The notes: generated from the sequence alone by a model not told the origin. Positions 1,155-42,207 are shown, numbered from the stretch's first letter. The stretch is 49,165 nt of DNA from Eubacteriales bacterium (GCA_028680875.1 JAQUJQ010000001.1:1-49165); one strand, 5' to 3'. Program-made: numbers and translations.

Positions 1155-2522
1155 TCACCCACGTGTCGTTAGCAGCCGGTACATCTGTTCGAGCAGTGAT
1201 GTTACAAATGACTCTTTGAGTGATGGCTTCATGTATGCCGCGCAAAGAGTCATTTTGTTATGGAATGTGCTCACCGACAGCATAAACGATGGTGAAACGA
1301 ATGCAGGGGAGACCACATACATATCTTCGATGCGGCTGCTGCCGAACCGAGACGTGTCGCTGTCCTGCCGGTTTGTCGTGGCATTCGTGTCGCTGTCTGG
1401 TTGTCCTATCGGAGCATTATCGAGCCTACCGATGTTGGCAATCATAGGAGTGCAGAGCCCTGTGGTCTTGATACTCTCCCAATCGGCTTTGTAACAGTCG
1501 GCAAGAGAATTGTAGTCTGTTGACATCAATTCGCAGCCAAGTACTGTCTGTAGTATGATTTCAGGGTCTGTTACCTTGTCAATCGACTTTTTCGCCTCTC
1601 TGACAAGTTGTGCAAAATCACAGTGTGTAGGGAGCTGTATGTTGAACAGATTTGAGAGATTGCAAATGGTGTTCGGAATGGTTTGATCTGTGTATTTTCG
1701 CAGATTGGCTGAAAATTGGATCTCTTTCGTCTTGTCGGAAACCTTTAGCAATGAACATAGAACGCGGTGATAAACTGCTGTGACAACGGCATTTATCGAA
1801 CTGCCATGAGCCTTGGCAAATCTGAAGATATTGTCCACCTCTTCTTCGGAAAATCGGATAGTACGGTAGTCAAACTGCTGTTCTGCAGATAAATCTCCTA
1901 TCGTAGTTCCCCATGTGGCAGTCATATCGCCAAGCAGGGAAGGGTTGAATCTTGAAGCTTTGTCGGTAACGGCGAAATGGCGGTAAAATGATTCGGTTCC
2001 ACGGCGGGATGCAACCTCCTGCGGTCTGAAATCTGGATTCTTTTCAACTTCGCAATACATTTCGGCAAGCAGTCGTACAAATTCGAGTGCACCTCCTGCA
2101 TCACAAAGGGCGTGATGTGTCTTTATCACTAAAAATGTGTTGTTGCCGCTTTTGACCATTATCAGTTTGAGAGGGCAATCTCTTTCTGCATCAATCTTTT
2201 CTCCAAGGGCGAGCTTGATCTCTTTTTCAGAGTCATCGGATTCGATAGATCTGCATAATTGCTGAATATCGAATGGTTGTTCTTTCCATTGCGGGATGGT
2301 CTCGTTCTTGTCAAAAATACATCCCAGAATCGGCTCTCTTATTATACAGCAATTCAGTGCTTGTTGTAATGTATTTATACTAAGATTGTTATCTGTTTTC
2401 AGTACAAATTGGATCAGTGCATTGGAGTTGCACTCCCGGGCGACAAAATTGAACCAGTCAAAAGGAGTAGTGTCGAAATGAGCCATCTCTGTGATATTGT
2501 TTGTTAATCGTATTGTTTTCAA
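1155..2522 (-). CDS. condensation-domain / HHxxxDG acyltransferase family protein
   Basis: 455-aa uninterrupted ORF. It carries the catalytic-type motif THHALCDAGG (HHxxxDG) seen in NRPS C-domain and WS/DGAT-like acyltransferases. Confidence 0.55.
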   Translation of the reverse strand: MKTIRLTNNITEMAHFDTTPFDWFNFVARECNSNALIQFVLKTDNNLSINTLQQALNCCIIREPILGCIFDKNETIPQWKEQPFDIQQLCRSIESDDSEKEIKLALGEKIDAERDCPLKLIMVKSGNNTFLVIKTHHALCDAGGALEFVRLLAEMYCEVEKNPDFRPQEVASRRGTESFYRHFAVTDKASRFNPSLLGDMTATWGTTIGDLSAEQQFDYRTIRFSEEEVDNIFRFAKAHGSSINAVVTAVYHRVLCSLLKVSDKTKEIQFSANLRKYTDQTIPNTICNLSNLFNIQLPTHCDFAQLVREAKKSIDKVTDPEIILQTVLGCELMSTDYNSLADCYKADWESIKTTGLCTPMIANIGRLDNAPIGQPDSDTNATTNRQDSDTSRFGSSRIEDMYVVSPAFVSPSFMLSVSTFHNKMTLCAAYMKPSLKESFVTSLLEQMYRLLTTRG

Positions 2523-2652
2523 ATGTTAAGGTCCGTTTGTCCGAAAAGGGGTGCAAATTTAGCAAATAATATTGTATATGTAATAGCAAGTCGGTATATG
2601 CAAACAAATCGGGCTTTGCGGGCCCGATTCCTCTGTTTGAAGATGTGAAAAT

Positions 2653-4161
2653 TTATTTTTTGGTAGTAATTTCGACTATCGATTCTTTCTCTTTTTTGTT
2701 GACATTAATTGAAGAGATACTGTCCGGATCCATTGCCTGCATCTCCTTGTCGGTGATTTTTTTGCCATCAACGAAAATTTGTACGTTTTCATTATCCGAA
2801 CCTTCTGTGGCTTTGATTGTTACTGATCGAAAATCCCCTTTCAGGAGGTCCTTTCCGTCTTTGGTAACATTAATGGTAATAGTGGCATTATCATCTGAGC
2901 CATCGGAAGACGTTTTGATAGAAACGGATTTGCTTTCAGACATTTTGACTTTGTCGGACTTGTTGATTATAATAGTTTCTATTTCCGATGCATCAATTTT
3001 GTCGGACTTGTCGCCATAACTTATGACTTCGACATTTTGTGTCACCTTCACTTCAGGTTTGAGGTTGATGCGAACTTCTTTTCTGCCATTTGACTTATCA
3101 ACATTAATGTTTGATATCATGTTGTGGTTCAGAGCATCAACGATTCCTTTGGTGACCTTTACGTCATTGACATAATAGATAACAGAGTCTGCTGATGCGA
3201 TACCTGCTTCGGCTTCTTTGTTATATGAGGCTTCGGCATCCTTGTAGGTGGTTTTGGTCTTAGCGGAGGTCATAAGGGTTATCCCGATGACAGGAATGAT
3301 AAATAGCACTTTCCAAAGTGCTGCGGATGAAGATTTTTTAGATAACATCATTGTAATACGATTTTTAAGAACATTATGATTAAAACTGTTGGCAACTGAA
3401 TAGAAATTGTTTCCAACGGCCTTTTTGATTAATAACAGTTGGTATTGTCCGGCATTAATGCCGCTTTTAAGTACACGGTCATCTGCCTGATATTCATGGA
3501 TGGATCTCAGGTCGCTGCGAAGCATCCACATTGCAGGATTAAACCATTGGAAAGCGGTAAGAATGTCTGTAAATAGGATGTCGCATGAGTGTTTGAGTGC
3601 AATGTGGGCCTTCTCATGCAGGATTATTTCATCAAGCGCGGATTCGCTCAAGCCATCTGCCGAAGTTGCCATGCAATTTTCGGAAGAAAGGAAATCATTT
3701 TCAGAAATGACTATGTAGGACATCCTGCTGAAAGGGGAGACAGGCTCCGAAGTGACATATATTTCAGTGCCGTCTTTCCCGATTTCTTTGCGTGAGTGTC
3801 TGATGAGGGATAGTACCTTATGTATTGAACGGAAAGTCTTGAAAAGCACAAATATGGCTCCCATTGCAACGATTCCGAGTATGATTTCAGGCCAGAGGGA
3901 AGATTTTTCGGCTATTTTCGACACTGTGTCTGTTGCTGTTTCGGTTTGAGTTACGGCTTTAGAGATAGGAACTTCCACCACTTTTTCGATAGTGATGATG
4001 CAGAAGGGGAGGATGAATGACATTGCAGCTGTCGCGAGCAACACAATCCTGTTTACACGGTGAAATGTCTCCTTGCTGAGCAACAGGCGATAAAACATAT
4101 AGAAGACCGCCATTATGACAGCTGTTTTCAGCAGATAAATAAGTATGGCAAGTGCATTCAT
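2653..4161 (-). CDS. BlaR1/MecR1-type M56 metallopeptidase sensor
   Basis: 502 aa. It has N-terminal TM helices and the zinc motif HEKAH (...ILHEKAHIALKH). The gene is translationally coupled to the upstream BlaI-like gene, sharing nt 4161. Confidence 0.75.
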   Translation of the reverse strand: MNALAILIYLLKTAVIMAVFYMFYRLLLSKETFHRVNRIVLLATAAMSFILPFCIITIEKVVEVPISKAVTQTETATDTVSKIAEKSSLWPEIILGIVAMGAIFVLFKTFRSIHKVLSLIRHSRKEIGKDGTEIYVTSEPVSPFSRMSYIVISENDFLSSENCMATSADGLSESALDEIILHEKAHIALKHSCDILFTDILTAFQWFNPAMWMLRSDLRSIHEYQADDRVLKSGINAGQYQLLLIKKAVGNNFYSVANSFNHNVLKNRITMMLSKKSSSAALWKVLFIIPVIGITLMTSAKTKTTYKDAEASYNKEAEAGIASADSVIYYVNDVKVTKGIVDALNHNMISNINVDKSNGRKEVRINLKPEVKVTQNVEVISYGDKSDKIDASEIETIIINKSDKVKMSESKSVSIKTSSDGSDDNATITINVTKDGKDLLKGDFRSVTIKATEGSDNENVQIFVDGKKITDKEMQAMDPDSISSINVNKKEKESIVEITTKK

Positions 4162-4523
4162 TATTTTGAGGATGAGTTAACCTTGTTGATAAGTTCTTTG
4201 AGTTCGTCGATGGAGATTTTTTCCTCTTTGACAAGAGCGGAGACCGCATCAAGATAAGATCCGTCAAAGAAATTGGAAACCATGCTGCTGATGGCGTTTT
4301 TGCCGTATTCTTCCTTTGAAACGACAGAGTAGTACTGGTATGTGCTGCCATATACGTTGTGAGAAAGGTATCCATTGCTTTCAAGGATCCTTACCATTGT
4401 GGAAATGGTGTTGAAGTGTGGTTTGGGGTCGGGATACAAGGCTACCAGATCTTTGACGAACATCGGACCGGATTGCCAGAAAAATTCCATTATTTCACTC
4501 TCTTTATTAGTAAGTCTTTTCAT
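4161..4523 (-). CDS. BlaI/MecI/CopY family transcriptional repressor
   Basis: 120 aa. The sequence ...LTNKESEIMEFFWQSGPMFVKDLVALYPDPKPHFNTISTMVRILESNGYL... is typical of the penicillinase-repressor wHTH. It is paired with the M56 sensor. Confidence 0.8.
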   Translation of the reverse strand: MKRLTNKESEIMEFFWQSGPMFVKDLVALYPDPKPHFNTISTMVRILESNGYLSHNVYGSTYQYYSVVSKEEYGKNAISSMVSNFFDGSYLDAVSALVKEEKISIDELKELINKVNSSSK

Positions 4524-4935
4524 TGTATAAACGTTTTAACTTTCACGCTGCAAATGTAACTATATTTTTTAATTATGCAACTAAAAAATTTAATTACTTG
4601 ACTATAAATTTTAGTTAAAGAGCATAAATATTTGTAAATAAGCATATTATAAATAGTATATTTCATTATTAACAATCAGCATGATCTATATAACGATAGC
4701 TGAGCGACAGGTGGAAGAGGCATCCGGAGGGCGTTTTCGTTCGCAGACACTCAATGTAGTTATTGATAGCTTTTATCCATTTATGTATGTTGAAATTTAA
4801 ATACAAAGAGCTTTTATTGGACAAAGGGAATGGAATTTGTATCTTTACAAGTGGAAATTTAGTTAGCAGATTCGACAATGAATACAAAAATTGAAGATTG
4901 TCTTGTATGTAAATAAACCATCAAATTATATAAAT

Positions 4936-5781
4936 ATGAAAAAATCTTTGTCGTTTTTAGGAATCGTAGCAGTAACAAGTCTGTTACTTTGTTCGTGTGA
5001 TAAGCCTCAAGTGCAGTTTAAGACGCTTACGTGCAATGAGGTTTTCAAATCTGAAAAAGTTATCGAAAAGTTCCATCCTGCAGAAGATGCTGTGCACGGA
5101 ATTGGTTTCAATCTTCATTTTACGTACCCTGTTTCAGGGGTTGATGAGGCGCTGATACCTGTGATGCAGAATGCTCTGGTGGAGTCTTTCTTTAGTGGCA
5201 TGTATCCGGGAATGGAACCGGAGGCTGCTTTTGATACATTCATCCAGGCTAATCGCCAGGACTATTTGAATGAAATTGATGCATGTATCGGTGATTGTGA
5301 TGAAATGGTTGGAGGGCTGTTTTCATGGAAAATTTATATCGTAGATACGATCTGTTTTCAGAATGACAGATTAATCCAGTTTCAAACAGATGGTTATGGT
5401 TATACCGGGGGTGCTCATGGGACGACTTGGTACACGGGAGTATTGTTCGATCTGGAGCAGGGGAGGATGTTGACTTCTGATGATGTATTTGTATCTGATG
5501 CAGAACCGCTTAAAGATCTGCTGATTGAAGAATATCTGAAGACTAATGAAGAGTTGAGAAATAGTGATGATGCTTCGAATATTGCCGGAATCAGAAATAA
5601 CACATGGAATGGCCAGACACATTTTGCAATCACAGATGATGGTATTTATTTTATGTATGACTCTTATGCACTTGGTTATTATGCACTTGGCTCACCAAAA
5701 CTGTTTCTTTCATACGATCGGCTCAAAGGTCTGATCCGCGAAGACTCGCCGGTATATGACATTGCAAATGCGGTGAAATAA
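4936..5781 (+). CDS. lipoprotein with DUF3298/DUF4163 (RsiV-like) domains
   Basis: The start was moved from the track's TTG at 4891 to the ATG at 4936 (MKKSLSFLGIVAVTSLLLCSC lipobox). The YGYTGGAHG motif is typical of DUF3298. Confidence 0.55.
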   Translation: MKKSLSFLGIVAVTSLLLCSCDKPQVQFKTLTCNEVFKSEKVIEKFHPAEDAVHGIGFNLHFTYPVSGVDEALIPVMQNALVESFFSGMYPGMEPEAAFDTFIQANRQDYLNEIDACIGDCDEMVGGLFSWKIYIVDTICFQNDRLIQFQTDGYGYTGGAHGTTWYTGVLFDLEQGRMLTSDDVFVSDAEPLKDLLIEEYLKTNEELRNSDDASNIAGIRNNTWNGQTHFAITDDGIYFMYDSYALGYYALGSPKLFLSYDRLKGLIREDSPVYDIANAVK

Positions 5782-5823
5782 AACGGACCGGTAGTCGGAA
5801 ACGTATCTTTCTGAAAATAAATT

Positions 5824-5873
5824 AAATAGAGATTTAGTAACTCGCTGAGTTTTATCTAAATCTCTATTTTTTT
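5824..5873 (+). terminator. intrinsic terminator after the lipoprotein gene
   Basis: A 14-bp stem AAATAGAGATTTAG (5824-5837) pairs with CTAAATCTCTATTT (5856-5869) and is followed by a T-run. Confidence 0.6.
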
Positions 5874-5930
5874 GTCACATATAGGTAAAAATTAGAGGGA
5901 AAATCATATTAACCTGAGTATATTTTATCT

Positions 5931-6016
5931 AAAAAAGACGAGACAGCAAGCTGCCCCGTCTTAAATGTTTTCACAACGGAATAATCCTTATTGTGATTTG
6001 CTTAAAATTTGTTCTG
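5931..6016 (-). ncRNA. tracrRNA (type II-C), divergent from cas9; 5' end uncertain
   Basis: On the minus strand, 6012->5990 reads ACAAATTTTAAGCAAATCACAAT. This is complementary to nt 1-24 of the crRNA-sense repeat GTTGTGATTTGCTTTAAAATTTGT, with one bulged U and a G:U at nt 1. A stem region follows, then the terminator GACGGGGCAGCTTGCTGTCTCGTC (5960->5937) plus T6 (5936->5931). Confidence 0.7.
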
Positions 6017-6105
6017 CGAAGATAGGTATTTTTTATTAGTAATCAAATAATTCCGTAAAATAAATTTTTATTCTTAACTTTATAGTCTATTAAACAGAAT
6101 AGACT

Positions 6106-9100
6106 ATGAAAAAGATTTTAGGTCTCGACTTAGGTACCAACAGCATCGGATGGGCGGTGGTTAATGCGAATGAAGATGGAACTCCTACAACTATTGAAGG
6201 AATGGGTAGCCGGATTATCCCAATGGGAGCAGACAAAATTAGTTATGAAAAGGGAGCAGGCATAACAAAAAATGCCGATAGGCGAGCAAAACGTACTGCA
6301 CGCAAGGGAAATAAACGATACAAACAACGTCGGGATAAGTTGCTGTTTGTTTTAAATGAACTTGGAATGCTTCCTGAACAATTTATTGTGAGGCATAAGG
6401 TGCGTGATGAAAAAGGAAAGTTAACGGATGAATATGCCGATGGTTTTCCGGATTCTAACCATTTGCAGGATTTAGTATTAGAGCCTATAAAAAAGAATTC
6501 ACTACAACTAACTTCAAAAACATATTATGAAAAGCGAGTAAATGCTATACACAACAAAGTTGATAATTTAAGTGATTTGGGTAAAATTTTATACCAATTC
6601 AATCAATTACGCGGTTATGCAGGTGGAAATAGAAATGATGAAAAAAATAAAAAGGCTGAAAATGTTGAGGATGAAGAAAATAAAAAATACGAGGTGTTTA
6701 CTGCAAAATGTTTGATTACCGACATCGAAAAATCAGACTATATTTTTAAGGTTAAAGGTGGAATAAATAAGGGACAAGAATTACCAAAATATATTGTAAC
6801 ACTTATAAGTGATGATAAGGAATATAGAGGTGAAACAGAATTGCAGACATTGGAAAAAGATAAAGATGAAGAATTAGAAATAAGAATAAAAAGGACAAAA
6901 AAGGGAGAAACGATAACATTTGCATTGCCGCAAAAGACAAATTGGCGAAAGCAAATGGAAAAAACGGAAGAAACGTTAAATGAAAGGAACAAATACAAAC
7001 ATTATTATATCGGTGAATTGTTGTTAGATGATTTGAAAGAAAATCAATGGACAAAAATCAGAAATCGAGTAATTTTACGCAAGCGTTATCAAGAGGAATT
7101 TGACGCTATATGGGAAACTCAGTCTCAATATTTTGATGTCCTGAAATTATGTTCAAAAGAATCACTTCAACGTATCACAAACTATTTGTATCCCGGTAAT
7201 GGCGAAAATCAAATAAAACTGAGAAATGAAGCAATAGAAAAAGGCTTATACCACATAATAAGAAATCAAATAATTTATTATCAACGTCCGTTGAAACCAC
7301 AAACTGATTTAATTGCTAATTGCCAATTTGAAAAAGATGAAAAAGTTACGCCTGAATCAAATCCTATTTTTCAAGAATTTCGCTGCTGGCAACAAATCAA
7401 CAACCTTTATGTCACTTCAAAACAGAAAGTTTTTGATGAGCGTAAAAAGAAGGAAGTTTATAAATATAAAGATAGATACCTTACAGATGAACAAAGAGAG
7501 GCTCTTTATGATAAATTACAGATTCAGAAACAGTTGGGCTTTGGCGAAGTCGCCAAAATTGTTCAACTGAAAGATGACAAAACAGAATATTTGAATGGAC
7601 TTAATGTAAAAGCAAAGTTAAAAGGCTGTGATACCAATATTTCTATACGAAAGATTTTAGGTGCCTATGCCGAAGAATTAGAAAATAAAAATACTAATAT
7701 TATTAGTGAAATTTGGAATATACTTTATTACAAAACAGGGAATGAATATGATGTTGATAGTGATAATGTTAAATCGCTAATTAATACTTTGTGCCAATAT
7801 GTTGATAAACAAATTGCGACTGAATTATCTTTGAATCTGGCACAAAAAATAAGTTTTACCAAAAAATATAAAAGCCTATCTGTAAAGGCTATCAATAATA
7901 TTTTGCCTTTAATGAAAAGCGGCAAGTATTATTCCAATGAGAAATTATCTGCTGCTTCAATTGATAAATACAATAAAATAGTCAACACAATAAACACAGG
8001 AGAGATAGATGATTCAACCGAATTGTATATGGTTGATTATCTGTATAATAATTCGGACTTGATAGAAAAAGGTGGAATGATGTACGCTTTTGCAACTTCG
8101 TTGGTTTATGGCAGTCATTCAAATACGAAAATTAAACCTTCTATTACAAACTATCACGATATTGTTTACACCGAGCGAAATTTGCGGAACCCTATTGTTG
8201 AGCAAATTACAAATGAAACCATGCAAATAATAAAGGCTATTTGGAAACAATATAAATTTAATCCGCAGGAATTGGAAATACGTGTTGAGTTGGCTCGCGA
8301 GTTGAAAAATAGTGCCGTAGAGCGTGAGCGGATATATAAAAGTCAAATCAAAAATAAAAAGATAAACGACTCAATAAAGCAGCGTTTAATAGAGCTTAAT
8401 CAAGAAGCCTCTTCTACAAATATAGATAAATACAAATTGTGGAGTAAACAAAGTACCGAAGACTATCCTATATTTAAAGACATAAAATCACCTACCCAAG
8501 ATGAGATCCAACGTTTGAGAATATGGGAAGAGCAAAAGTGTGTCTCTCCTTATACAAACAAGCCTATTCCTCTGTCAAAACTGTTTGATACAAGAGAATA
8601 TGACATAGACCATATTATTCCAAAAGCCCGTTTTTTTGACGATTCAATGGCAAACAAAGTAATATGCGAATCAAATATAAACGAAGAAAAAAGTAATCGG
8701 ACTGCATGGGAATATATAACGCAACAAACGAGTAAACATAAAATCTTTGATGTAGAAGCATATATTAAGCATGTTAATGATAATTTTTTCGGGCAAAAGA
8801 AAAAGAATTTATTATTGGAAAAAATACCGACCGATTGCGTTACTCGTCAAATAAAAGACACACAATATATTTCGGTTGCAGTAAAAAGCGAATTAGCAAA
8901 AATTGTGGGGAGCGATAATGTCAAAAGTTCTACCGGCGAAATAACAAGTTTTTTGCGTAGCCATTGGGGATTGAAAAAATTGTTCATGGAATTGACGGAG
9001 TCCAGATTTAAGCAAATGGAATTATGGGATGAAACAAAAGAATGGGTAAAACGATATTATGATAAAGACAAAGGGAAAAATGTATATGAAATAGAAAATT

Positions 9101-10479
9101 GGAGTAAGCGTTATGACCACCGTCACCATTCAATTGACGCATTAGTTGTTGCAATGACAACTCAAAAACATATTCAGGCATTGAATAATCTGAATAAGGA
9201 AATGCAAGATTGGCTTAACGAAAACAAAGATGCCATAAAATTGGATGTGGCAGAAGGCGAATCGCTCATTGAAGCCTTTTTCAATTTGGAAGAAAAACGC
9301 AGAGAAGAAATTCAGAAAAAAATGCCAAGTTTTAGGAAGTTTGATTCTCCAATAAACAATTTAGTTTCTGAATCCAAAAAAATATTGGAAACAATGATTG
9401 TTTCTCAAAAGCCAAAGAACGCTTTGTCTGTCCAATATAGCGATAAAACAAAGAAAAAGGAGTTGCGAATACGAGGTGCTTTACATGAAGAAACTTATTA
9501 CGGCAAGCATAAAGGGCAAGACACGAAAATCGTTGATATATCTAATTTGTCAGCCAAAGATATTGATAAAATTCTTGATGTCACAAAAGGCGGATTAAAA
9601 GATGAAATAAATGCGCATAGAAATAAAAAAGATGAAAATGGAAAAGAAAAATACAATTCAATGAAAGAGGCTTTTTCCGGTGAGGGTTTAATTGATTTTA
9701 ATGAAACAAGAAAATTGAATGGGAAACCGCCTGTTTATAAAATAAAACTACGCTACAATACAAAAGAGAAAAAAGAGAGCGGATTGCAAGTATTGTATGA
9801 TGAGCATAAGGGAAAAAATCAAAAATTGAGTGTTGTTACAGGAAATAATTATTTGTTTGTTGTGATGGAAAAAACGAATAAAAAGGGAGAAACCGAGAGA
9901 TGTTTTGATATTGTTTCATTGTTTGATGCTGCAAAATATGCAAAAAATAATATGGACGGAAATTTTATAGACGATATTACAAGTGTTGTTTGTAAAGAGA
10001 ATAAAGCAAATAAAGTTTTGTTTACTTTGCAACAAAACGATTTGGTCTATTGTCCTGAATCCGTTGATGATTCAATTCTGCGTATGACTAACGAAGAATT
10101 AAAGAAATGCCTTGAAAACGATGACAATAAAAAAGCATTCGTTTCGAGAATCTATAAAGTTGTAAAATTTACAGGGAAAGATTGTTTCTTTATTCCAAAT
10201 AATTATGCAAACAGTATTAGCGTACAAAAAAAATTATCTGAGGAAGAAAAAGATTTTTTGAAGAAAGAAAAATATAAAGATAAAACCATTCCAAAAACAG
10301 AGTTGTTTATTGAAGAATTCGGTTCTTTTGGGAATTGTGTAAAAACTATTCCTAATGCTGACTTTGTTAAGCGTTTAAAGGCAAAAGCAAATGTTGAAGA
10401 TAAGATTATCAAGATACAAGATATTTGTGTAAAATTAAATATTGATTGGCTTGGTAATGTATCAATTATCAAAATGTAG
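6106..10479 (+). CDS. cas9: Cas9, type II-C (large Bacteroidota form, 1457 aa)
   Basis: RuvC-I is LGLDLGTNSIGWAV. HNH is DIDHIIPKARFFDDSMANKVICESNINEEKSNRTAWEY. RuvC-III is HHSIDALVVAMT. The gene is followed by cas1 and cas2, with no csn2 or cas4. Confidence 0.97.
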   Translation: MKKILGLDLGTNSIGWAVVNANEDGTPTTIEGMGSRIIPMGADKISYEKGAGITKNADRRAKRTARKGNKRYKQRRDKLLFVLNELGMLPEQFIVRHKVRDEKGKLTDEYADGFPDSNHLQDLVLEPIKKNSLQLTSKTYYEKRVNAIHNKVDNLSDLGKILYQFNQLRGYAGGNRNDEKNKKAENVEDEENKKYEVFTAKCLITDIEKSDYIFKVKGGINKGQELPKYIVTLISDDKEYRGETELQTLEKDKDEELEIRIKRTKKGETITFALPQKTNWRKQMEKTEETLNERNKYKHYYIGELLLDDLKENQWTKIRNRVILRKRYQEEFDAIWETQSQYFDVLKLCSKESLQRITNYLYPGNGENQIKLRNEAIEKGLYHIIRNQIIYYQRPLKPQTDLIANCQFEKDEKVTPESNPIFQEFRCWQQINNLYVTSKQKVFDERKKKEVYKYKDRYLTDEQREALYDKLQIQKQLGFGEVAKIVQLKDDKTEYLNGLNVKAKLKGCDTNISIRKILGAYAEELENKNTNIISEIWNILYYKTGNEYDVDSDNVKSLINTLCQYVDKQIATELSLNLAQKISFTKKYKSLSVKAINNILPLMKSGKYYSNEKLSAASIDKYNKIVNTINTGEIDDSTELYMVDYLYNNSDLIEKGGMMYAFATSLVYGSHSNTKIKPSITNYHDIVYTERNLRNPIVEQITNETMQIIKAIWKQYKFNPQELEIRVELARELKNSAVERERIYKSQIKNKKINDSIKQRLIELNQEASSTNIDKYKLWSKQSTEDYPIFKDIKSPTQDEIQRLRIWEEQKCVSPYTNKPIPLSKLFDTREYDIDHIIPKARFFDDSMANKVICESNINEEKSNRTAWEYITQQTSKHKIFDVEAYIKHVNDNFFGQKKKNLLLEKIPTDCVTRQIKDTQYISVAVKSELAKIVGSDNVKSSTGEITSFLRSHWGLKKLFMELTESRFKQMELWDETKEWVKRYYDKDKGKNVYEIENWSKRYDHRHHSIDALVVAMTTQKHIQALNNLNKEMQDWLNENKDAIKLDVAEGESLIEAFFNLEEKRREEIQKKMPSFRKFDSPINNLVSESKKILETMIVSQKPKNALSVQYSDKTKKKELRIRGALHEETYYGKHKGQDTKIVDISNLSAKDIDKILDVTKGGLKDEINAHRNKKDENGKEKYNSMKEAFSGEGLIDFNETRKLNGKPPVYKIKLRYNTKEKKESGLQVLYDEHKGKNQKLSVVTGNNYLFVVMEKTNKKGETERCFDIVSLFDAAKYAKNNMDGNFIDDITSVVCKENKANKVLFTLQQNDLVYCPESVDDSILRMTNEELKKCLENDDNKKAFVSRIYKVVKFTGKDCFFIPNNYANSISVQKKLSEEEKDFLKKEKYKDKTIPKTELFIEEFGSFGNCVKTIPNADFVKRLKAKANVEDKIIKIQDICVKLNIDWLGNVSIIKM

Positions 10480-10483
10480 TATT

Positions 10484-11314
10484 ATGAGCAACATAAAACT
10501 TTTTCAAGATAAGAAAATCAGAACATATCATGATGAAATTCGTGATCAATGGTATTTTTCTGTAGTTGATACAATTGCAGTATTGACCGATAGCACCATT
10601 CCAAAACGTTATTGGAGTGACCTGAAAAAGAAACTCACAAAAGAAGGAAGTCAGTTGTACGAAAAAATCGTACAACTGAAATTCGAAGCAAATGACGGAA
10701 AGAAATATGCAACAGATTGCTTGGAAACCTCTCATTTATTGCGTTTAATTCAATCCATTCCTTCGCCTAAGGCTGAACCATTTAAAGTGTGGTTGGCAAC
10801 GGTCGGCTATGAACGTTTGCAGGAGATTGAAAACCCAGAATTGGCTCAGGAACGCATGAAAACGTTATATGAGCAGAAAGGTTATCCCAAAGACTGGATC
10901 GACAAGCGACTGCGTGGTATCGCCATACGTCAGAACCTTACTGATGAGTGGAAGAAACGGGGCATTTCATCAGAACAAGATTATGCTATTCTCACAGCCG
11001 AAATTTCGAAAGCCACATTTGGACTTACACCCTCTCAATACAAAGATTTGAAAGGACTTACCAAGAAAAACCAGAATCTGCGTGACCACATGGATGATTT
11101 GGAATTGATTTTCACCATGCTCGGGGAACGAGTCACCACCGAAATCTCGGAAAAGGAACAGCCAGAAACCTTTGACGAGAATAAAAAGGTGGCAAAACGC
11201 GGTGGAAATGTGGCCGGAATAGCCAGAAAACAGACAGAGAAGGAGTTAGGACGTAGCGTGGTTTCACGTAAGAATTTCTTGCCAGATATTGAAGAAAATA
11301 AAGATACTCAATAA
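10484..11314 (+). CDS. Bro-N domain / DinD-like (DNA-damage-inducible protein D family) protein embedded in the cas operon
   Basis: The ATG at 10484 lies 5 nt after the cas9 stop. The stop lies 8 nt before the cas1 start. The N-terminus FQDKKIRTYHDEIRDQWYFSVVDTIAVL is Bro-N-like. The C-terminal segment KGLTKKNQNLRDHMDDLELIFTMLGE resembles E. coli DinD KGLKKNQKILDHMGSTELAANLF, as I recall that sequence. Confidence 0.65.
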   Translation: MSNIKLFQDKKIRTYHDEIRDQWYFSVVDTIAVLTDSTIPKRYWSDLKKKLTKEGSQLYEKIVQLKFEANDGKKYATDCLETSHLLRLIQSIPSPKAEPFKVWLATVGYERLQEIENPELAQERMKTLYEQKGYPKDWIDKRLRGIAIRQNLTDEWKKRGISSEQDYAILTAEISKATFGLTPSQYKDLKGLTKKNQNLRDHMDDLELIFTMLGERVTTEISEKEQPETFDENKKVAKRGGNVAGIARKQTEKELGRSVVSRKNFLPDIEENKDTQ

Positions 11315-11322
11315 TTGTACGA

Positions 11323-12586
<1,264 letters not shown>

Positions 12587-12691
12587 TAAATAAGTAAGCC
12601 TATCATAATGATAAGCTTACTCTTTATCGCTATTATTTGTTTTTTAATCCACACTATATATTGTTGATTTACAACAAATTACATCAAATGT

Positions 12692-13353
12692 GGTGTCTGC
12701 GATATATCAAAGATACAAATTTTAAAGCAAATCACAACACTCCCCTAAACCTATCGGAAATCTTCTTCGGTGTCTGCGATATATCAAAGATACAAATTTT
12801 AAAGCAAATCACAACCCATCATCTGAGAGCGTATATCGTAATAGTGGTGTCTGTGATATATCAAAGATACAAATTTTAAAGCAAATCACAACATAGGCGT
12901 AAACCTTATGCGAATAACTTGCGGTGTCTGCGATATATCAAAGATACAAATTTTAAAGCAAATCACAACTTGAACCTCGGTGAGCTTATCAAAGAACAGG
13001 GTGTCTGCGATATATCAAAGATACAAATTTTAAAGCAAATCACAACTGAGCCATGAGAGAGCTGTCAGATAGACACGGTGTCTGCGATATATCAAAGATA
13101 CAAATTTTAAAGCAAATCACAACACCCCCCTAAACCTATCGGAAATCTTCTTGGTGTCTGCGATATATCAAAGATACAAATTTTAAAGCAAATCACAACC
13201 TTATTGCGATTCTCTCTTTCTTAATGGGGGGTGTCTGCAATATATCAAAGATACAAATTTTAAAGCAAATCACAACATCGGTTTTTTCACTTTGATTTGC
13301 CGGTTCGGTGTCTGCGATATATCAAAGATACAAATTTGAAAGCTATTCACAAT
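12692..13353 (-). CRISPR. CRISPR array part A: 9 repeats and 8 spacers
   Basis: The 47-nt repeat on the plus strand is GGTGTCTGCGATATATCAAAGATACAAATTTTAAAGCAAATCACAAC. Repeats start at 12692, 12769, 12846, 12923, 13000, 13077, 13153, 13230 and 13307. Spacers are 29-30 nt. Repeats 3 and 8 each carry a 1-nt variant. Repeat 9 (13307-13353) is a hybrid: nt 1-31 are perfect and there are 4 changes in nt 32-47. Strand '-' is the crRNA sense inferred from tracrRNA complementarity. Confidence 0.95.
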
Positions 13354-33847: not shown

Positions 33848-34918
33848 TTATATTTTTATTTCTGGGAAACTGTCGATTGCTTCGCGTGCGCCTTTATCGG
33901 TAATGTTTGCGTAATGTTTAATGGTTGTTTGAACGGATTTATGCCCAAGTAATTTGCTGACCTTGTAAATATCAACGCCGCTTTCGAGGAGAATAACGCC
34001 AAACGAATGTCGGGCAATGTGGAAATGGAGTGTTTTTTTGAGCTCTAATTTGGTGGCTATATTTTTCAGTGCTTTATCACACGCCTGTTGCGTGGGAACG
34101 CTGAAAACCTTGTAATCATCTGCTTTGCGTTCGCCAAGCAAAGCGATTGCTTGGGGATTCATAGGCAAATAGGTTACGCCTGTTTGCTTGCCGTTTTTGG
34201 TCTGTGTTTTTTGCTGTGAGAATTTCAGTCGGAAGTCTTCTGTGATATTTCCCCAAGTGAGGTTTTTAATGTCGGAATAACGCATCCCACAAAAGCAGGA
34301 AAACAGGAATACGGTTTTCACTTTCGGGTTGAGGCTGCTTTGTGCTATCCGGGCAATTTCATCGGTTGTAAGGAAACTTACAATCGTTTCTTGTTTCTCG
34401 GGGGCTTCTATATCCAACAGGGTATCGGAAGCAACAATACTTTCGGTAATGGCTCTTTTGATAAACGAACGGAATTTGGAAAAATAGGCGTTAGCCGTAT
34501 TTCCGTGAAGATTGCTTGCTAGATAATCGGCAAAGCCCTGTACAAACTCCCGCTTTACCTCCTGCATTTGGAGCGATTTATTGGGCATATATTCTTTGAG
34601 GTGGTCAACAACCTGCATACTAACTTTGGTTGTTGCCTGGGCTTCGCAGTAGGCAAGAACTGACTGTTTACGCTTGTGTGCAGGTGTGATTCCGTTCGGA
34701 CTGGCGATAAGTTGGTTCTCCCGCTGGTTGCGGATTTGCTGGGCGAGTTTCAGAGATTCCTTGTTGGCTTCCCTCTCTTCCTTGGTGGGGCGATCGGATA
34801 GTACGGTATAGATTTTCAGGTATTCATAATGGCGTTTCCCATTCTGAAACCAGTCGAGATAATAACTTCCGTTTCCGTCGGCGAGCTTCTTAACTCGCAG
34901 TTTGACTGTTGTTTTCAT
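33848..34918 (-). CDS. int: tyrosine site-specific integrase
   Basis: The start was moved to the ATG at 34918 (MKTTVKLRVKKLADGNGSYYLDWFQNGKRHYEYLK, an Arm-DNA-binding-type N-terminus). Catalytic-region motifs are ...MRYSDI..., HIARHSFG and LLGHKSVQTTIKHYA. Confidence 0.9.
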   Translation of the reverse strand: MKTTVKLRVKKLADGNGSYYLDWFQNGKRHYEYLKIYTVLSDRPTKEEREANKESLKLAQQIRNQRENQLIASPNGITPAHKRKQSVLAYCEAQATTKVSMQVVDHLKEYMPNKSLQMQEVKREFVQGFADYLASNLHGNTANAYFSKFRSFIKRAITESIVASDTLLDIEAPEKQETIVSFLTTDEIARIAQSSLNPKVKTVFLFSCFCGMRYSDIKNLTWGNITEDFRLKFSQQKTQTKNGKQTGVTYLPMNPQAIALLGERKADDYKVFSVPTQQACDKALKNIATKLELKKTLHFHIARHSFGVILLESGVDIYKVSKLLGHKSVQTTIKHYANITDKGAREAIDSFPEIKI

Positions 34919-34920
34919 AT

Positions 34921-34971
34921 CCGTTTCTTTGAAACAAAGATACAAAAAAGAAACGGTTTGAGAAACGGTTT
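34921..34971. promoter_or_regulatory. putative arm-type sites (right arm)
   Basis: AGAAACGGTTTGAGAAACGGTTT is at 34949-34971, and an inverted half-site CCGTTTCTTT is at 34921-34930. Both lie directly upstream of the integrase start. Confidence 0.5.
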
Positions 34972-35092
34972 TATGCAAAAAAGAACAAATATGAGCAAAA
35001 AAGAAGAGTATTTCGGGAGGTAGTCAAATTTATAATTATCTAATATATAGATTATTATTAGTTTTTGCTTGTTCTTGTTTTCTGTGAAAATG

Positions 35093-35500
35093 TGGTATGT
35101 GATTCTTAAAGCAAATCACAACAGTAATATGGAATGGACAACAGAATAAAAAGGTGTCTGCGATATATCAAAGATACAAATTTTAAAGCAAATCACAACT
35201 GAACTTGTTTCTATCAGTGAAATCTATCTGGTGTCTGCGATATATCAAAGATACAAATTTTAAAGCAAATCACAACACCATAACGGCAGAGTAACTACGA
35301 ATCTTTGGTGTCTGCGATATATCAAAGATACAAATTTTAAAGCAAATCACAACTCCGCGGATGTTGCATTCATCTTTAGACAGGTGTCTGCGATATATCA
35401 AAGATACAAATTTTAAAGCAAATCACAACTGTAAGCGCGATATTACTTCTTCAATTGTCGGTGTCTGCGATATATCAAAGATACAAATTTTAAAGCAAAT
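35093..35500 (-). CRISPR. CRISPR array part B: hybrid partial repeat, 4 full repeats, 1 truncated repeat, 5 spacers
   Basis: The last 17 nt of the repeat lie at 35106-35122. They are preceded by GGTATGTGATTC, which is not repeat sequence. Full repeats start at 35153, 35230, 35307 and 35383. The final repeat (35460-35500) lacks its last 6 nt. Spacers are 29-30 nt. Confidence 0.9.
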
Positions 35501-35609
35501 GAAGATATGTGCTTATTGTGAAGGAGGGTTTGAATTGTCGACTCTTTGTCGACGGTTCAAATAGCAAACTATACGAGTTGCACGGTGAGCCCCAATGTGG
35601 AGGAGATAC

Positions 35610-35892
35610 GCATGAGGGTACTGACTCCACAATTACCATCTCAGTTATCCAATCACCAATGCAAAAATAAATAATGGAGATGATAAATCAAGAGGAGGTT
35701 TATGGTATCTGGGTGGGTATGCTCCGAAATAGCCAACTTGTAAGGATTTCTTACAAGTTTGCCAAGAGGGTTCTTGTCTGGTAATAAGCAATGTACATTA
35801 TAATTTGAACATGATTAGAACATTAGGCTATCTATTGAAAATCGAACTCACAAGTAATTCTTATAAGTTCAAACTGAGGGTGCTCGTCAAGT
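35610..35892. repeat. inverted-repeat copy A of a ~270-280-bp noncoding element
   Basis: It is the reverse complement of 48423-48692, about 95 percent identical by eye, with a 13-nt insertion (TACCATCTCAGTT) in copy A. It contains the hairpin ACTTGTAAGGATTTCTTACAAGT. Confidence 0.85.
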
Positions 35893-35931
35893 GATATTGG
35901 CCGACAATGCTATGATTCACGCATTTGCCGA

Positions 35932-36047
35932 GATGCAAAAGATAATATACGCTCTCCGAGCGATTCCGCAAGCAGCGAGAAGTTCTGCGAAGCAGGACGC
36001 CACGAGCAATGAGGACTAGCGAAAGAGCGTATATTATCTTTTGCATC
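35932..36047. repeat. perfect 24-bp stem with a 68-nt GC/purine-rich loop
   Basis: GATGCAAAAGATAATATACGCTCT (35932-35955) pairs with AGAGCGTATATTATCTTTTGCATC (36024-36047). Confidence 0.8.
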
Positions 36048-36129
36048 GTAAAGGACAAAATTATTTTCAAAAAACAAATCTGATTAAGCCGGGCCTGAAC
36101 ATCTGCAAATCGATATAACATATATCTTC

Positions 36130-37230
36130 TTATCGGCTGATATTGCGTATTATTTCGGCGATGGCTGTGGCACATTCGGCGACGCGTTCGTAATTGACAA
36201 TCTCGAGGTTGTCGTCAGGTGTGTGGGTCAATTCCTGACATTCCATATTTTCAATGAGCCATTGTGAACTGACGGCGATGGCAGGGCATCCTTGCTGCAG
36301 AAATACGCTGTGGTCACCTTGATACCATGGCACTCCTTCGACAAGTTCTGCGGTATCGCTGACTACTTTATTGACGATTGCGGCAAGATCTTCCGGTAAT
36401 TCCATAGAAGAAAAGCATGAAAGCCCTTCTTTGTGGCCTGCTCCGTCAATATTGATATTCAGAAGGATATCGTCAAAATGCCCTGAATTCTGATTGATGT
36501 ATTCGACCTGTCCGGATGCTCCGTAATAGTCTTCTCCGTTGAAAAAGACCAGTTCAATAGGATATTTTAAGTGTTTATCTTTAAGAAGTTCTGCAAGAAG
36601 AAGAAGGACAGTGACTCCGGTAGCATTGTCTATGGCGCCCGGGATTCCCGGCTTAGTGTCGACGTGGGCGGTTATGACAACACGTTTCGTAGTGTCGTCA
36701 CCAGGCAGTCGTCCGATGACATTATAGGCGGTTTCAGGAATACGTTCAGCCATGGATATCAGTGTAACGCTCTCTCCGGCGTGCTGCAGTAATCGTTCAC
36801 CCTCTGTATCTTTCATATAGACAGAAGGAATATCGAAGTTTCCGTATTCAAACAGTGGAAAAGGGTAGACCCCGCCGGCTGTTGCCGCATTGCGTTCTGT
36901 TGCGCAGATCAAGGCTTTCGGATGTCCCTGTTCCAATAGGGAAATCAGATGCTGGTGCTCTTCAGGATTCCAGAACGGGAAGTTTTTGGGGGCTATCTGC
37001 TGAGAAGCGATTTCGCCGTATAGGAGAACAATGCTGTCGCGGATATCGGTTTTTTCAAGTAATGAAACAGTGTTGACAGGAATTAATGAACCTTCTGCGT
37101 GACATCCTATCGAATAATGTGACGAAAATACTTCAAAATGTTGGTTGTTACAGATCAGTTCTGCCCCTTTTGTCTGCCAGTCAATGACTGAAAGAGAAGT
37201 GTTTTCACTTTTCCAGCCATATTCTTTCAA
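36130..37230 (-). CDS. M28-family (aminopeptidase-like) metallopeptidase
   Basis: 366 aa. The segments ...VVITAHVDTKPGIPGAIDNATGV... and ...FFNGEDYYGASG... are M28 zinc-ligand regions. Confidence 0.65.
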   Translation of the reverse strand: MKEYGWKSENTSLSVIDWQTKGAELICNNQHFEVFSSHYSIGCHAEGSLIPVNTVSLLEKTDIRDSIVLLYGEIASQQIAPKNFPFWNPEEHQHLISLLEQGHPKALICATERNAATAGGVYPFPLFEYGNFDIPSVYMKDTEGERLLQHAGESVTLISMAERIPETAYNVIGRLPGDDTTKRVVITAHVDTKPGIPGAIDNATGVTVLLLLAELLKDKHLKYPIELVFFNGEDYYGASGQVEYINQNSGHFDDILLNINIDGAGHKEGLSCFSSMELPEDLAAIVNKVVSDTAELVEGVPWYQGDHSVFLQQGCPAIAVSSQWLIENMECQELTHTPDDNLEIVNYERVAECATAIAEIIRNISR

Positions 37231-37526
37231 CTTTTCTTCGATATAAGAGGTCGCTTTACGGTTGCTGATGCTTCCTACTCGGCGTTCTCATATCTCGGAA
37301 CACAATACATGCAGATGCGTCTTGCCCGCAAGTTTGACAATTTGTTCTTTCATGAATAATATCTTCTACTTGTTTCTGCAAAGATACATTTTTATTGCAT
37401 CTATCCGCTTTTATCGTTATATTTGTAATCGGCAAAAACATAAACTTGAACAAGTCGGACTGGACTCTATTGGCTCCATGACCGGACTACATCGCTACGT
37501 ATTTTTTATTTGACAAACTATTAAGT

Positions 37527-38594
37527 ATGAACGATTTTGAAGATTATATAAGACAAGGTGAACCTGATAAAAAAGAAAAAGGTTATGCTTGGCAAACTGC
37601 TATAGGTTTGCAGGCTGTTGATGATTTAAAAACATCTGATTATCTCATACAGACAGCACGTCAGCACATTGAAGGAGATATTACAATTGAAGAAGCTAAA
37701 CAACTTATTGATAGGTATTACCATTCAAAGACAGTGAGAGCCGAAGCAGAAGACCGAACAGAAGAAGCTGATAAGGTTTCGGCACGAATTGCCGAAATTC
37801 TATCGGAGAATTCGTTCACATTTTCTCCTGTGGAATACATAAACATTCATCGTCGTCTCTTCAAGGATATCTATAAGTATGCTGGCAAGATAAGAGATTA
37901 TAATATTACTAAAAAAGAATGGGTGCTGGAAGGAGAAACTGTGTTGTACTCTAGTGCTGATACCATTCGCGAAACTCTTGAGTACGACTTTGTTCAGGAG
38001 AAGAATTTTAGTTATAAGAACCTTAATATAAACGATGCGATTACACATATAGTAAGATTTATTTCTGGTGTTTGGCAAATACATGCTTTTGGCGAAGGTA
38101 ATACTCGAACCACAGCTGTGTTTACCATCAAATATTTGCGCACATTCGGTTTCGATATCAGCAACGAATCATTTGCCAATCATTCGTGGTTTTTCCGAAA
38201 CGCGTTGGTACGAGCCAATTATAACAATTTGAACAAAGGTATTTATGCCACAACAGACTATCTTGAGGCGTTTTTCAGGAACCTGATATTATCCGAAAAC
38301 AACGAATTGAAGAACAGATCTATACTTGTATCAAGACAGAACGCCACAGAACTTAAAAGTAAAATTTCTTTTTCAAAGTGCAATATTTGCACTTTGAGTT
38401 GCACTTTAGAAGAAATAGCCGTGCTTAACTTCTTACGAGAACAGCCTAAGGCTACACAAAAAGAAATTGCAGCACATATAGGCAAATCTGAGAGAACTGT
38501 AAAAACCATTACTGTCAATTTAGCCGAAAAGGGTATTATAGAAAGAAAAAACGGCAAAAGAAATGGTTTTTGGGAGATTAAAAACAATGATTAA
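37527..38594 (+). CDS. Fic/DOC-family protein with C-terminal wHTH
   Basis: 355 aa. The Fic-like motif HAFGEGNTRTTA (38082-38117) is a variant of HxFx(D/E)GNGRxxR. The C-terminus has ...FLREQPKATQKEIAAHIGKSERTVKTITVNLAEKGIIERK. Confidence 0.75.
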   Translation: MNDFEDYIRQGEPDKKEKGYAWQTAIGLQAVDDLKTSDYLIQTARQHIEGDITIEEAKQLIDRYYHSKTVRAEAEDRTEEADKVSARIAEILSENSFTFSPVEYINIHRRLFKDIYKYAGKIRDYNITKKEWVLEGETVLYSSADTIRETLEYDFVQEKNFSYKNLNINDAITHIVRFISGVWQIHAFGEGNTRTTAVFTIKYLRTFGFDISNESFANHSWFFRNALVRANYNNLNKGIYATTDYLEAFFRNLILSENNELKNRSILVSRQNATELKSKISFSKCNICTLSCTLEEIAVLNFLREQPKATQKEIAAHIGKSERTVKTITVNLAEKGIIERKNGKRNGFWEIKNND

Positions 38595-38622
38595 ATCGGC
38601 AAATTCTAATTATATATCCATT

Positions 38623-39435
38623 ATGAGACGTCTCTATATTACATTTTCAGTATTACTCGCGGCATTTGCTCTGGCCGGCTGTTATCACAAACATTCAACC
38701 GTGTATGAGACAGACGAATACGGTGTAGTTACACGTATAAATCCATCAGAAAAGAGCGTATATCTTGTATTTACAGCTCATTTTAGTACAAATGACAATG
38801 GGGCTTTTGAAAATTTTGACGGAATAGTGCCGGTGCTCGACACCCTTGCAAGCCGTGGAGTAAAAGGCTCATTTTTCCCTACAGGCAATTGTTTCAGAGT
38901 TGAACGCTATAAAGAGCCTATACAGAGAATAATAGATGAAGGCCATTATCTGTCGGCCCATTCCAACCACCATCTGCTACTGTGTTCATACGCAAATCGG
39001 GATTCATCCCTTGTCACAGCCGATTCAATCCGCACCGACATCAAAGGTATGGAAGCAGAACTCCGACAATTCGGACTCACAAAAGAGCAATTCAACTGGA
39101 TGATACCACCTTACGAATATTACAATCAATTTTCGGCGGATGTACTTCGTGAACTCGGATATAATCTTGCAAATCCTACCGAAGGTCTTGAGACAAGCAT
39201 GGATTGGATGGGGCCCGAATCTCCGGATTATTGTTCTGCGCAGAATCTTGTCGAAAATATCTGGAAATATGATAATGAGCATACTCTCAGTGGCGTTATA
39301 CTTCTTATCCATGCCATGAATTACCCTGATCGTACAGATGCCGATCGCACATATCTTCACTTGGGAGAAATCATCGACGGAATCAGAGCCGGAGGCTACG
39401 ATTTCAAGACATTTGCAGACATCCCGAAGCAGTAG
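38623..39435 (+). CDS. polysaccharide deacetylase (NodB-like) lipoprotein
   Basis: The start was moved to MRRLYITFSVLLAAFALAGC (lipobox). The segments ...VYLVFTAHFSTNDNG..., ...HYLSAHSNHH... and ...LLIHAM... are NodB-like. The assignment is moderate. Confidence 0.5.
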   Translation: MRRLYITFSVLLAAFALAGCYHKHSTVYETDEYGVVTRINPSEKSVYLVFTAHFSTNDNGAFENFDGIVPVLDTLASRGVKGSFFPTGNCFRVERYKEPIQRIIDEGHYLSAHSNHHLLLCSYANRDSSLVTADSIRTDIKGMEAELRQFGLTKEQFNWMIPPYEYYNQFSADVLRELGYNLANPTEGLETSMDWMGPESPDYCSAQNLVENIWKYDNEHTLSGVILLIHAMNYPDRTDADRTYLHLGEIIDGIRAGGYDFKTFADIPKQ

Positions 39436-39746
39436 GGGAGACTCCACCCGCTTCAGCCACGACTTCCGAGGCAACGTAGTACGAGAATGCTACAGATGTT
39501 TCCTCGCCACTGTTACTGCATTTTCAGACAAAGTTAGGATTATCAAATTATTAAATGTACCTTTGCCGCTGATAAACATCAAGTTTATACTGAATTCTTC
39601 TTTTGCAGAACTATTTCCGACCTCTCAATCGGACATTCTATAATAAAACAAGATCTCATTATCGGCTTACTTGTTAAATAATAACAGTCGCGGGTTTGTC
39701 CAAACGAAACATTCCGACGTGACACAATTTGATTGTACAAAACATT

Positions 39747-40874: not shown

Positions 40875-40889
40875 GATAACAACAAGGCA

Positions 40890-41441: not shown

Positions 41442-41446
41442 GATTT

Positions 41447-42106: not shown

Positions 42107-42207
42107 GATTTATGTGTATTTGTACGCAAATATACATTAGAATACCTAATTATCCGGTTTTTTCTAAAAATAGCTTACTTTTGCCGTGTATAAACGTTTA
42201 TTATTAG

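Follow-up and report, generated by a model that had tools for sequence, protein, structure and literature searches.

A PDC-S13 family gene between cas9 and cas1 of a type II-C CRISPR-Cas locus, with relatives behind nuclease genes of other defence operons

Type II-C CRISPR-Cas operons canonically consist of cas9, cas1 and cas2 only. In a stretch of 49,165 nt from an Eubacteriales bacterium (GCA_028680875.1, JAQUJQ010000001.1:1-49165; the whole stretch is called the window), an additional open reading frame (ORF) at 10484-11314, here labelled gene X, is placed between cas9 and cas1. An extra gene at the boundary of effector and adaptation genes is also found as csn2 (type II-A) or cas4 (types II-B, V-A and I-B), and a function related to DNA ends is plausible for X as well. 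X has, however, no homology to Csn2 or Cas4 and coexists with Cas4 in V-A and I-B loci; close II-C relatives may do without it, and it is found outside CRISPR loci too.

The PDC families are candidates that were picked for their embedding in operons of BREX, DISARM and type I restriction-modification (R-M); CRISPR is never mentioned in the main text of that study (Payne et al. 2024, bioRxiv 10.1101/2024.01.29.577857). Family PDC-S13 resembles X in being a single gene that is co-oriented with the multi-gene defence operon around it. The known hosts of PDC-S13 are BREX, DISARM and type I R-M, whereas the host of X is CRISPR-Cas type II-C (V-A and I-B in relatives). PrrC of EcoprrI and RhuM-type genes in type I R-M operons follow the same embedding logic, X itself being found as hsdS-X-hsdM, and RhuM occupies the same cas9|cas1 slot. 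Unlike PrrC, X has no ATPase or anticodon-nuclease domain.

Two proteins of DNA damage are related or similar to X. Escherichia coli DinD is an SOS-induced inhibitor of RecA filaments. It has 274 amino acids (aa) against 276 in X and likewise two domains; the C-terminal domains are collinear and homologous, with the motif KGLKKNQxxLDHMxxxEL, but the N-terminal halves do not align, and E. coli dinD is a solitary chromosomal gene, unlike the defence-embedded X. DdrC of Deinococcus radiodurans (PDB 7qvb, 7udi, 8u0g) matches predicted structures of X over the full length, and the domains come in the same sequence: first a winged-helix-like domain at the N-terminus, then a helical bundle. Both proteins have a link to DNA damage. 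DdrC is a DNA-damage-induced dimer that recognises both nicks and double-strand breaks, and it bridges two lesions; in contrast to X, it is described as confined to Deinococcus and lies outside defence operons (PMC11347143).

X is a member of PDC-S13. The PADLOC hidden Markov model of this family (PDLC04920) matches its full length (residues 2-274, E 1.2e-120), as does PHROG 15286 (E 3.5e-98). Its orientation and position at the cas9|cas1 junction of a multi-gene operon are those of an embedded PDC-S13 gene, and relatives lie in type I R-M and type IIG operons. A reading of the sequence alone (the sequence-only reading) had assigned a Bro-N domain to the N-terminus, and this was confirmed with PF02498 (38.3 bits, cutoff 25.6); structural matches of the N-terminus in BFVD are Bro-N/KilA-N proteins. 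The same reading had likened the C-terminal half to DinD. This holds for homology of the domain but does not extend to orthology: the NCBIfam DinD model (NF008573, an equivalog) gave 21.1 bits against a cutoff of 242 and aligned residues 147-225 only, and X is therefore not a DinD orthologue. With a profile of 79 diverse family members, residues 146-271 of X were collinear with residues 136-263 of E. coli DinD (29.7 bits, E 2e-11 for a single target); a shallow-profile comparison with hhalign reached E 0.003 only. On the basis of the deep-profile alignment, which includes the common motif KGLxKKNQxLxDHMxxxEL, the two C-terminal domains are homologous. Near-invariant motifs of this domain in the X family are KGLxKKNQNLRDHMxDLEL and KRGGxVAGxAR. 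Searches of PDB sequences with the single protein and with the family profile returned nothing, and no toxin-like or enzymatic effector domain was detected with Pfam, NCBIfam or the AlphaFold model.

More than 8000 homologues of X were found, and the family comprises 9458 cluster representatives at 50% identity (E<=1e-3). About 70% identity is kept among members from Bacteroidales, Geobacter, Leptospiraceae, Rickettsiales and the candidate phyla radiation (CPR). X is a real gene under strong purifying selection. The ratio of nonsynonymous to synonymous rates (dN/dS, omega) is about 0.02 in the three X pairs in which dS was measurable; most pairs were discarded because synonymous sites were saturated. 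The dN of X is about one third of that of Cas1 in the same pairs of loci, and mean pairwise identity is 0.81 for X and 0.68 for Cas1. An origin from a phage antirepressor was considered and rejected, since phage genomes practically lack the family: 50,697 phage records yielded four unannotated 5-kb fragments as the only matches.

Relatives were surveyed with one genome per species (539 relatives), and the closest 80 were analysed by tblastn with the Cas proteins of the window and by clustering of neighbouring genes. The pair cas9-X is present in 37 other species among the 80, all Bacteroidales-like, and 34 of the 37 have the full order cas9-X-cas1(-cas2); the gaps flanking X mostly fall between -8 and +30 nt. 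In 11 of the 80 species, belonging to Treponema and other Spirochaetota, Prolixibacteraceae, Bacteroidales and Leptospiraceae, the arrangement is of type V, cas12a-X-cas4-cas1-cas2. One such locus (L044) was confirmed with NCBIfam models for Cas12a (1165 bits) and for type V Cas4, Cas1 and Cas2. On a plasmid of Arcobacter cloacae, a type I-B locus reads cas7-cas5-cas3-ATPase-cas4-X-cas1b-cas2, with X 51% identical to that of the window. All four relatives of this protein that were looked up lie in type I-B loci (a Campylobacterota subfamily), three of them with the order cas6-cas8-cas7-cas5-cas3-X-cas4-cas1-cas2 (Sulfurospirillum multivorans, Aliarcobacter and one more), and at least five I-B loci with X were recorded. 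X thus has the recurrent location in cas operons that is expected of a CRISPR-ancillary gene. The idea that it is a one-off insertion, never linked to cas genes elsewhere, is contradicted by its embedding in cas operons of dozens of species and three CRISPR types. Across X-bearing loci, Cas9 proteins are 27-57% identical and X proteins 70-90%.

In a Leptospiraceae metagenome-assembled genome (L046), the genes X-cas4-cas1-cas2, with Cas4 and Cas1 of type V, are preceded by a gene for a 1166-aa protein (1660-5160). This protein had no NCBIfam match and resembled Cas12a only weakly, within the RuvC region (30% over 86 aa); it was left unclassified and may, on this similarity, be a divergent type V effector.

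Several loci have X beside the effector gene and no adaptation genes behind it. In Sulfurimonas, cas3-X of type I-B is followed by a long array, the adaptation genes being absent there; in Bacteroidales UBA6267, cas12a-X is followed directly by arrays; and in locus L032, cas9-X occurs without cas1. Because such loci exist with cas3, cas12a and cas9, X tracks the nuclease gene rather than cas1 or the adaptation genes. Relatives are also found in non-CRISPR operons, as hsdS-X-hsdM (L024) or abutting MmeI/Eco57I-like type IIG enzymes and SNF2 helicases (L031, L037, L045). Other neighbours are RhuM, AbiH and Schlafen-like genes, and some housekeeping genes. In three Chitinophagaceae (Puia-like) genomes, X is solitary between polA and uvrB (6001-6831 in each of L175, L177 and L179). 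Its chromosomal position is conserved; it is oriented divergently to polA and, in two of the three genomes, convergently to uvrB. This site is a DNA-repair neighbourhood rather than a defence island.

Two AlphaFold models of X, built from different alignments, have predicted local distance difference test (pLDDT) scores of 80 and 84. In both, an alpha/beta N-domain is joined by a flexible linker (near residues 107-117) to a C-domain made of helices only; the predicted strands of the N-domain are at 14-17, 22-26, 63-68 and 74-81, together with helices, and pLDDT is 90-98 across residues 205-255. With both models, the only significant Foldseek matches in PDB were six DdrC chains (E 8e-5 to 3e-3, probability 1.00, about 235-259 aligned columns, template-modelling (TM) scores 0.31-0.50); the next match had E>0.5.

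The same conserved protein typically comes directly after Cas9, Cas12a, Cas3 and type I and type IIG restriction genes, and X is not a Cas9-specific partner. Since a near-invariant X stands beside effectors without common sequence, it most likely acts on something common to all of them, and the shared target is most likely cleaved DNA or the host recombination machinery, not the effector protein or an operon-specific operator. The placement directly after nuclease genes in three CRISPR types and in restriction systems suggests that X acts on nuclease-cut DNA, and the DinD precedent, the predicted DdrC-like fold and the polA/uvrB neighbourhood point the same way, to DNA breaks or recombination. 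The reading preferred here, with a probability of roughly 0.4, is that X, as embedded cargo, takes effect downstream of nuclease-based immunity, on DNA breaks or recombination intermediates. X would be expressed with the cas9-cas1-cas2 operon as cargo and would bind DNA at or near breaks, or recombination intermediates created by the nuclease. It could then modulate the outcome in one of two ways: RecA-dependent repair of cleaved invader DNA would be blocked or channelled, or breaks would be stabilised. DNA-cutting immunity would thereby become more effective, or the cost of self-damage lower. The activity proposed, directed at DNA breaks or RecA, could run in either direction, against repair of the invader or towards stabilisation of host breaks; an inhibition of RecA would follow the DinD precedent. 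Among the roles suggested in the sequence-only reading, a link between DNA damage and CRISPR is viable and comes closest to this one. A wider form of the proposal is judged unlikely: that the DinD/PDC-S13 family as a whole consists of DNA-break binders associated with CRISPR and R-M across types, remote homologues of DdrC, which are placed after the nuclease genes of I-B, II-C, V-A and R-M systems and decide the fate of cleaved DNA. They might block recombinational rescue of invaders, protect the host from self-cuts or feed adaptation.

Several observations weigh against the reading of X as a break- or recombination-directed cargo. The share of CRISPR-linked relatives (60%) is biased upward, as the 80 genomes were picked by similarity to a CRISPR-linked query, and many members lie in R-M, polA/uvrB or other contexts. 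One homologue (L178, 6001-6807) is found inside a NiFe-hydrogenase/complex-I-like operon in the same orientation; the family can therefore lodge in non-defence operons too. PDC-S13 is so far a candidate family, its function putative for every member, and the homology to DinD is limited to the C-terminal domain. TM-scores with DdrC are modest, and sequence-level similarity between X and DdrC was not detected in single-protein and profile searches, which makes the DdrC fold a reproducible lead and not family membership. A less biased view was given by a metagenome scan seeded with Cas1 (67 loci with Cas1 65-73% identical and adequate upstream sequence): only 4 of the 67 closely related II-C loci carry X. 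About ten others have different small genes exactly at the cas9|cas1 junction (L102, L104, L126, L140, L147, L103, L108, L117, L148, L101; at about 4400-6000 in each), sometimes two in tandem, and in the remaining loci cas9 abuts cas1. These genes are RhuM/PDC-S05 (4 loci), DUF6155 (5), UPF0158 (2), DUF3223/HamC-like (1) and, for the remainder, unknown genes. As unrelated genes take the same place, the cas9|cas1 junction of this Bacteroidales II-C lineage is a variable cargo slot, with X one recurrent tenant; X is an optional and not a core cas gene. Such a slot with unrelated cargo fits passive hitch-hiking as well as functional coupling.

For DUF6155 and UPF0158, PADLOC gave no match; they may be additional candidates for embedded genes. 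X adjoins a RhuM-family gene in L002 (cas9-RhuM-X-cas1), L027, L038 and L077, that is, in both CRISPR and non-CRISPR loci, which hints that the two families move or function as a pair. That RhuM, where co-resident, is a homologue of X was considered and dropped, the hhalign comparison being not significant (E 0.08, probability 0.7%).

A neighbour-joining tree of X, made without bootstrapping, places the II-C-linked copies in what is essentially a single clade, and the V-A-linked copies in one main clade plus two separate instances. In a Cas1 tree of X-positive and X-negative loci, the X-positive loci fall in two blocks. Pairwise identities of X and Cas1 are correlated (Mantel r 0.30, reached by 0 of 2000 permutations), a modest effect; X has therefore been co-inherited with the locus over long periods.

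The main rival to a function on broken DNA is rather unlikely in our estimate, and the variable slot fits both equally. X would be an autonomous single-gene anti-phage module, as PDC-S13 genes are proposed to be, lodged in defence operons for shared expression and horizontal transfer ('genomic sink' or guilt-by-embedding), with no interplay with Cas9 cleavage; it might serve as a sensor or abortive-infection backup by analogy with PrrC in EcoprrI. The definition of PDC-S13, based on genes within type I R-M, BREX and DISARM operons, speaks for such a module, as do the presence of the same protein in R-M operons and solitary contexts, its company with RhuM (PDC-S05) in the four loci named above, and a junction that holds at least five unrelated cargo families and has X in only 6% of related loci. 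Yet no toxin-like or enzymatic effector domain was detected, conservation across phyla is extreme for a phage sensor in an arms race, X consistently comes straight after the nuclease gene in three CRISPR types, and the polA/uvrB site points to DNA metabolism, not phage sensing. A part in CRISPR adaptation is less probable still, though the location of X at the effector/adaptation boundary, beside cas1 or cas4, in all three CRISPR types would suit it: X would be an analogue of Csn2, binding the DNA ends left by interference and passing fragments to (Cas4-)Cas1-Cas2. Type II-C otherwise lacks a fourth adaptation gene, X and Cas1 show a weak but significant co-divergence, and the predicted DdrC-like fold would suit binding of breaks or ends. 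This role is hard to reconcile with loci in which X is kept beside the effector and array and the adaptation genes are missing (Sulfurimonas, UBA6267) or cas1 is missing (L032), with R-M operons, which have no adaptation stage, and with the 63 of 67 related II-C loci that do without X; X and Csn2 also have no structural or sequence similarity.

X is probably neither a regulator of Cas9 nor an anti-CRISPR, although both regulation and selfish insertion had been among the roles first suggested. Bro-N domains occur in phage regulators and antirepressors, and DinD is a member of the SOS regulon, so X could be pictured as a transcriptional regulator that acts on the cas operon via Bro-N and possibly responds to DNA damage or phage infection. 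We regard this as very unlikely: a protein that stays about 70% identical is found in mid-operon, neither at an edge nor divergent, in II-C, V-A and R-M operons with unrelated promoters and different effectors; most sister loci lack it, and in the spacers of 4 and 8 nt nothing resembling operator repeats was noticed. The insertion of X within a defence operon and the frequent annotation of Bro-N proteins as 'antirepressors' might suggest an anti-CRISPR or a selfish anti-defence insertion that disables or parasitises the locus. This is highly improbable. Anti-CRISPR proteins are encoded by phages or mobile elements and typically small and fast-evolving, whereas X has 276 aa and an omega of about 0.02, evolves about three-fold more slowly than Cas1 and is virtually absent from the phage records; it is long-lived and has been co-inherited with intact cas9, cas1, cas2 and arrays in dozens of species.

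The family is already catalogued as PDC-S13, and the embedding concept has been published. In the searchable literature, no report was found of an association of X with CRISPR, be it the three CRISPR types, the post-nuclease position, the II-C slot or the DdrC-like fold. The fate of DNA ends left by class 2 nucleases is poorly understood, especially in type II-C without Csn2 and Cas4, and genome-editing work has centred on the effectors. As a gene that follows Cas9, Cas12a, Cas3 and restriction nucleases in at least three phyla, X is a concrete candidate for a shared post-cleavage step. Guilt-by-embedding, so far applied to Hma, BREX, DISARM and type I R-M, is now extended to CRISPR-Cas operons. 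If the link to DdrC and DinD is true, it would give a functional context to two long-orphan DNA-damage proteins. If X is a mere hitch-hiker, a useful point of annotation is gained, in that cargo other than cas genes separates cas9 from cas1 in many 'II-C' loci.

The features of the locus are listed in Table 1. As first described from the sequence, the 276-codon ORF is tightly packed between cas9 and cas1 on the same (+) strand. It runs from the ATG at 10484 to the TAA at 11312-11314; the TAG of cas9 (10477-10479) is followed by a 4-nt spacer, so that X begins at the fifth base past the stop, and an 8-nt spacer precedes the cas1 ATG at 11323. A longer ORF starting with TTG at 10442 is possible, but homologues uniformly start at the conserved MSNIKLF, and ATG 10484 was accordingly taken as the start. 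The higher GC content of X, noted by eye before, proved correct. GC content and GC at third codon positions (GC3) are 0.404/0.397 in X, 0.319/0.273 in cas9, 0.357/0.274 in cas1 and 0.342/0.261 in cas2, with a window mean GC of 0.378. As X is near this average, the AT-rich cas genes and not X are the outliers in composition. GC3 of X exceeds that of cas1 in only 9 of 41 X-containing loci, which makes the contrast local and not general; GC as a mark of recent foreign origin of X was rejected on these two grounds.

Table 1. Features of the cas9-X-cas1-cas2 locus and the adjoining CRISPR array in the window
Feature	Position	Strand	Description
cas9	6106..10479	+	1457 aa, type II-C effector nuclease directly upstream of gene X; TIGR01865 442 bits; HNH_4 and RuvC_III domains
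gene X	10484..11314	+	276 aa, Bro-N and DinD-C-like; member of PADLOC PDC-S13 / PHROG 15286
Bro-N domain of X (residues 11-105)	10514..10798	+	alpha/beta, predicted DNA-binding; PF02498 E 2.1e-9
C-terminal domain of X (residues ~118-255)	10835..11248	+	all-helical (predicted); homologous to the E. coli DinD C-terminal domain
cas1	11323..12252	+	309 aa, type II; TIGR03639 304 bits
cas2	12254..12586	+	110 aa; TIGR01573, PF09827
palindromic hairpin	12592..12622		directly 3' of cas2; likely operon end
CRISPR array part 1	12692..13353		9 repeats of 47 nt, 77-nt period; TATCTTTG on the minus strand of each repeat
CRISPR array part 2	35153..35506		5 further copies of the part 1 repeat, beyond a 21.8-kb insertion

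No terminator-like hairpin was found on the + strand from cas9 to cas2. Together with the tiny spacers and the hairpin after cas2, this is consistent with co-transcription of X with the cas genes. One metatranscriptome yielded a 259-nt contig inside X (10960-11218) and another contig inside cas1, which is too thin to prove co-transcription. A sigma-70 promoter scan performed no better than on shuffled sequence. For the Bacteroidetes motif TAnnTTTG, the whole window showed no enrichment; the motif was informative for the CRISPR repeats only and yielded nothing on X.

The stretch cas9-X-cas1 (window 9800-12300) was present at a word share of 0.96-1.00 in nine independent sequencing runs (X1-X9) of 2019-2025, mostly metagenomes of bioreactors, the others from landfill, wastewater, soil and manure. 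Both the organism and its gene order are thus widely distributed among engineered and waste environments of this kind.

The host locus has the composition of type II-C, with cas9-cas1-cas2, neither csn2 nor cas4, and an adjoining array; its trans-activating CRISPR RNA (tracrRNA) was not located. Within every repeat of both array parts (12692-13353, 35153-35506), the minus strand contains TATCTTTG, which agrees with the Bacteroidetes -7 promoter consensus TAnnTTTG. Repeat-internal promoters are known for some II-C systems, and here they would drive transcription of CRISPR RNA (crRNA) antisense to the cas operon, as this motif suggests. Spacers 1 and 6 of array part 1 are near-duplicates, actcccctaaacctatcggaaatcttcttc (12739-12768) and accccccctaaacctatcggaaatcttctt (13124-13152).

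A mobile element of about 21.8 kb (13354-35152) is inserted within the array. A sister contig (L082), which encodes an identical X protein, has one continuous array of 14 repeats and is collinear on both sides of the insert (94.9% over 10476-13352, 99.4% over 35153-43081). Genes of the insert include a tyrosine integrase (33851-34978, minus strand) and a DUF3987/PriCT_2 primase-like gene, and further SIR2 with HerA, QatABCD, a Schlafen/AlbA_2 ATPase, an ABC ATPase and DUF6266. From the integrase and the content of defence genes, the insert looks like an integrative element bearing a defence island, for which the array was the landing site.

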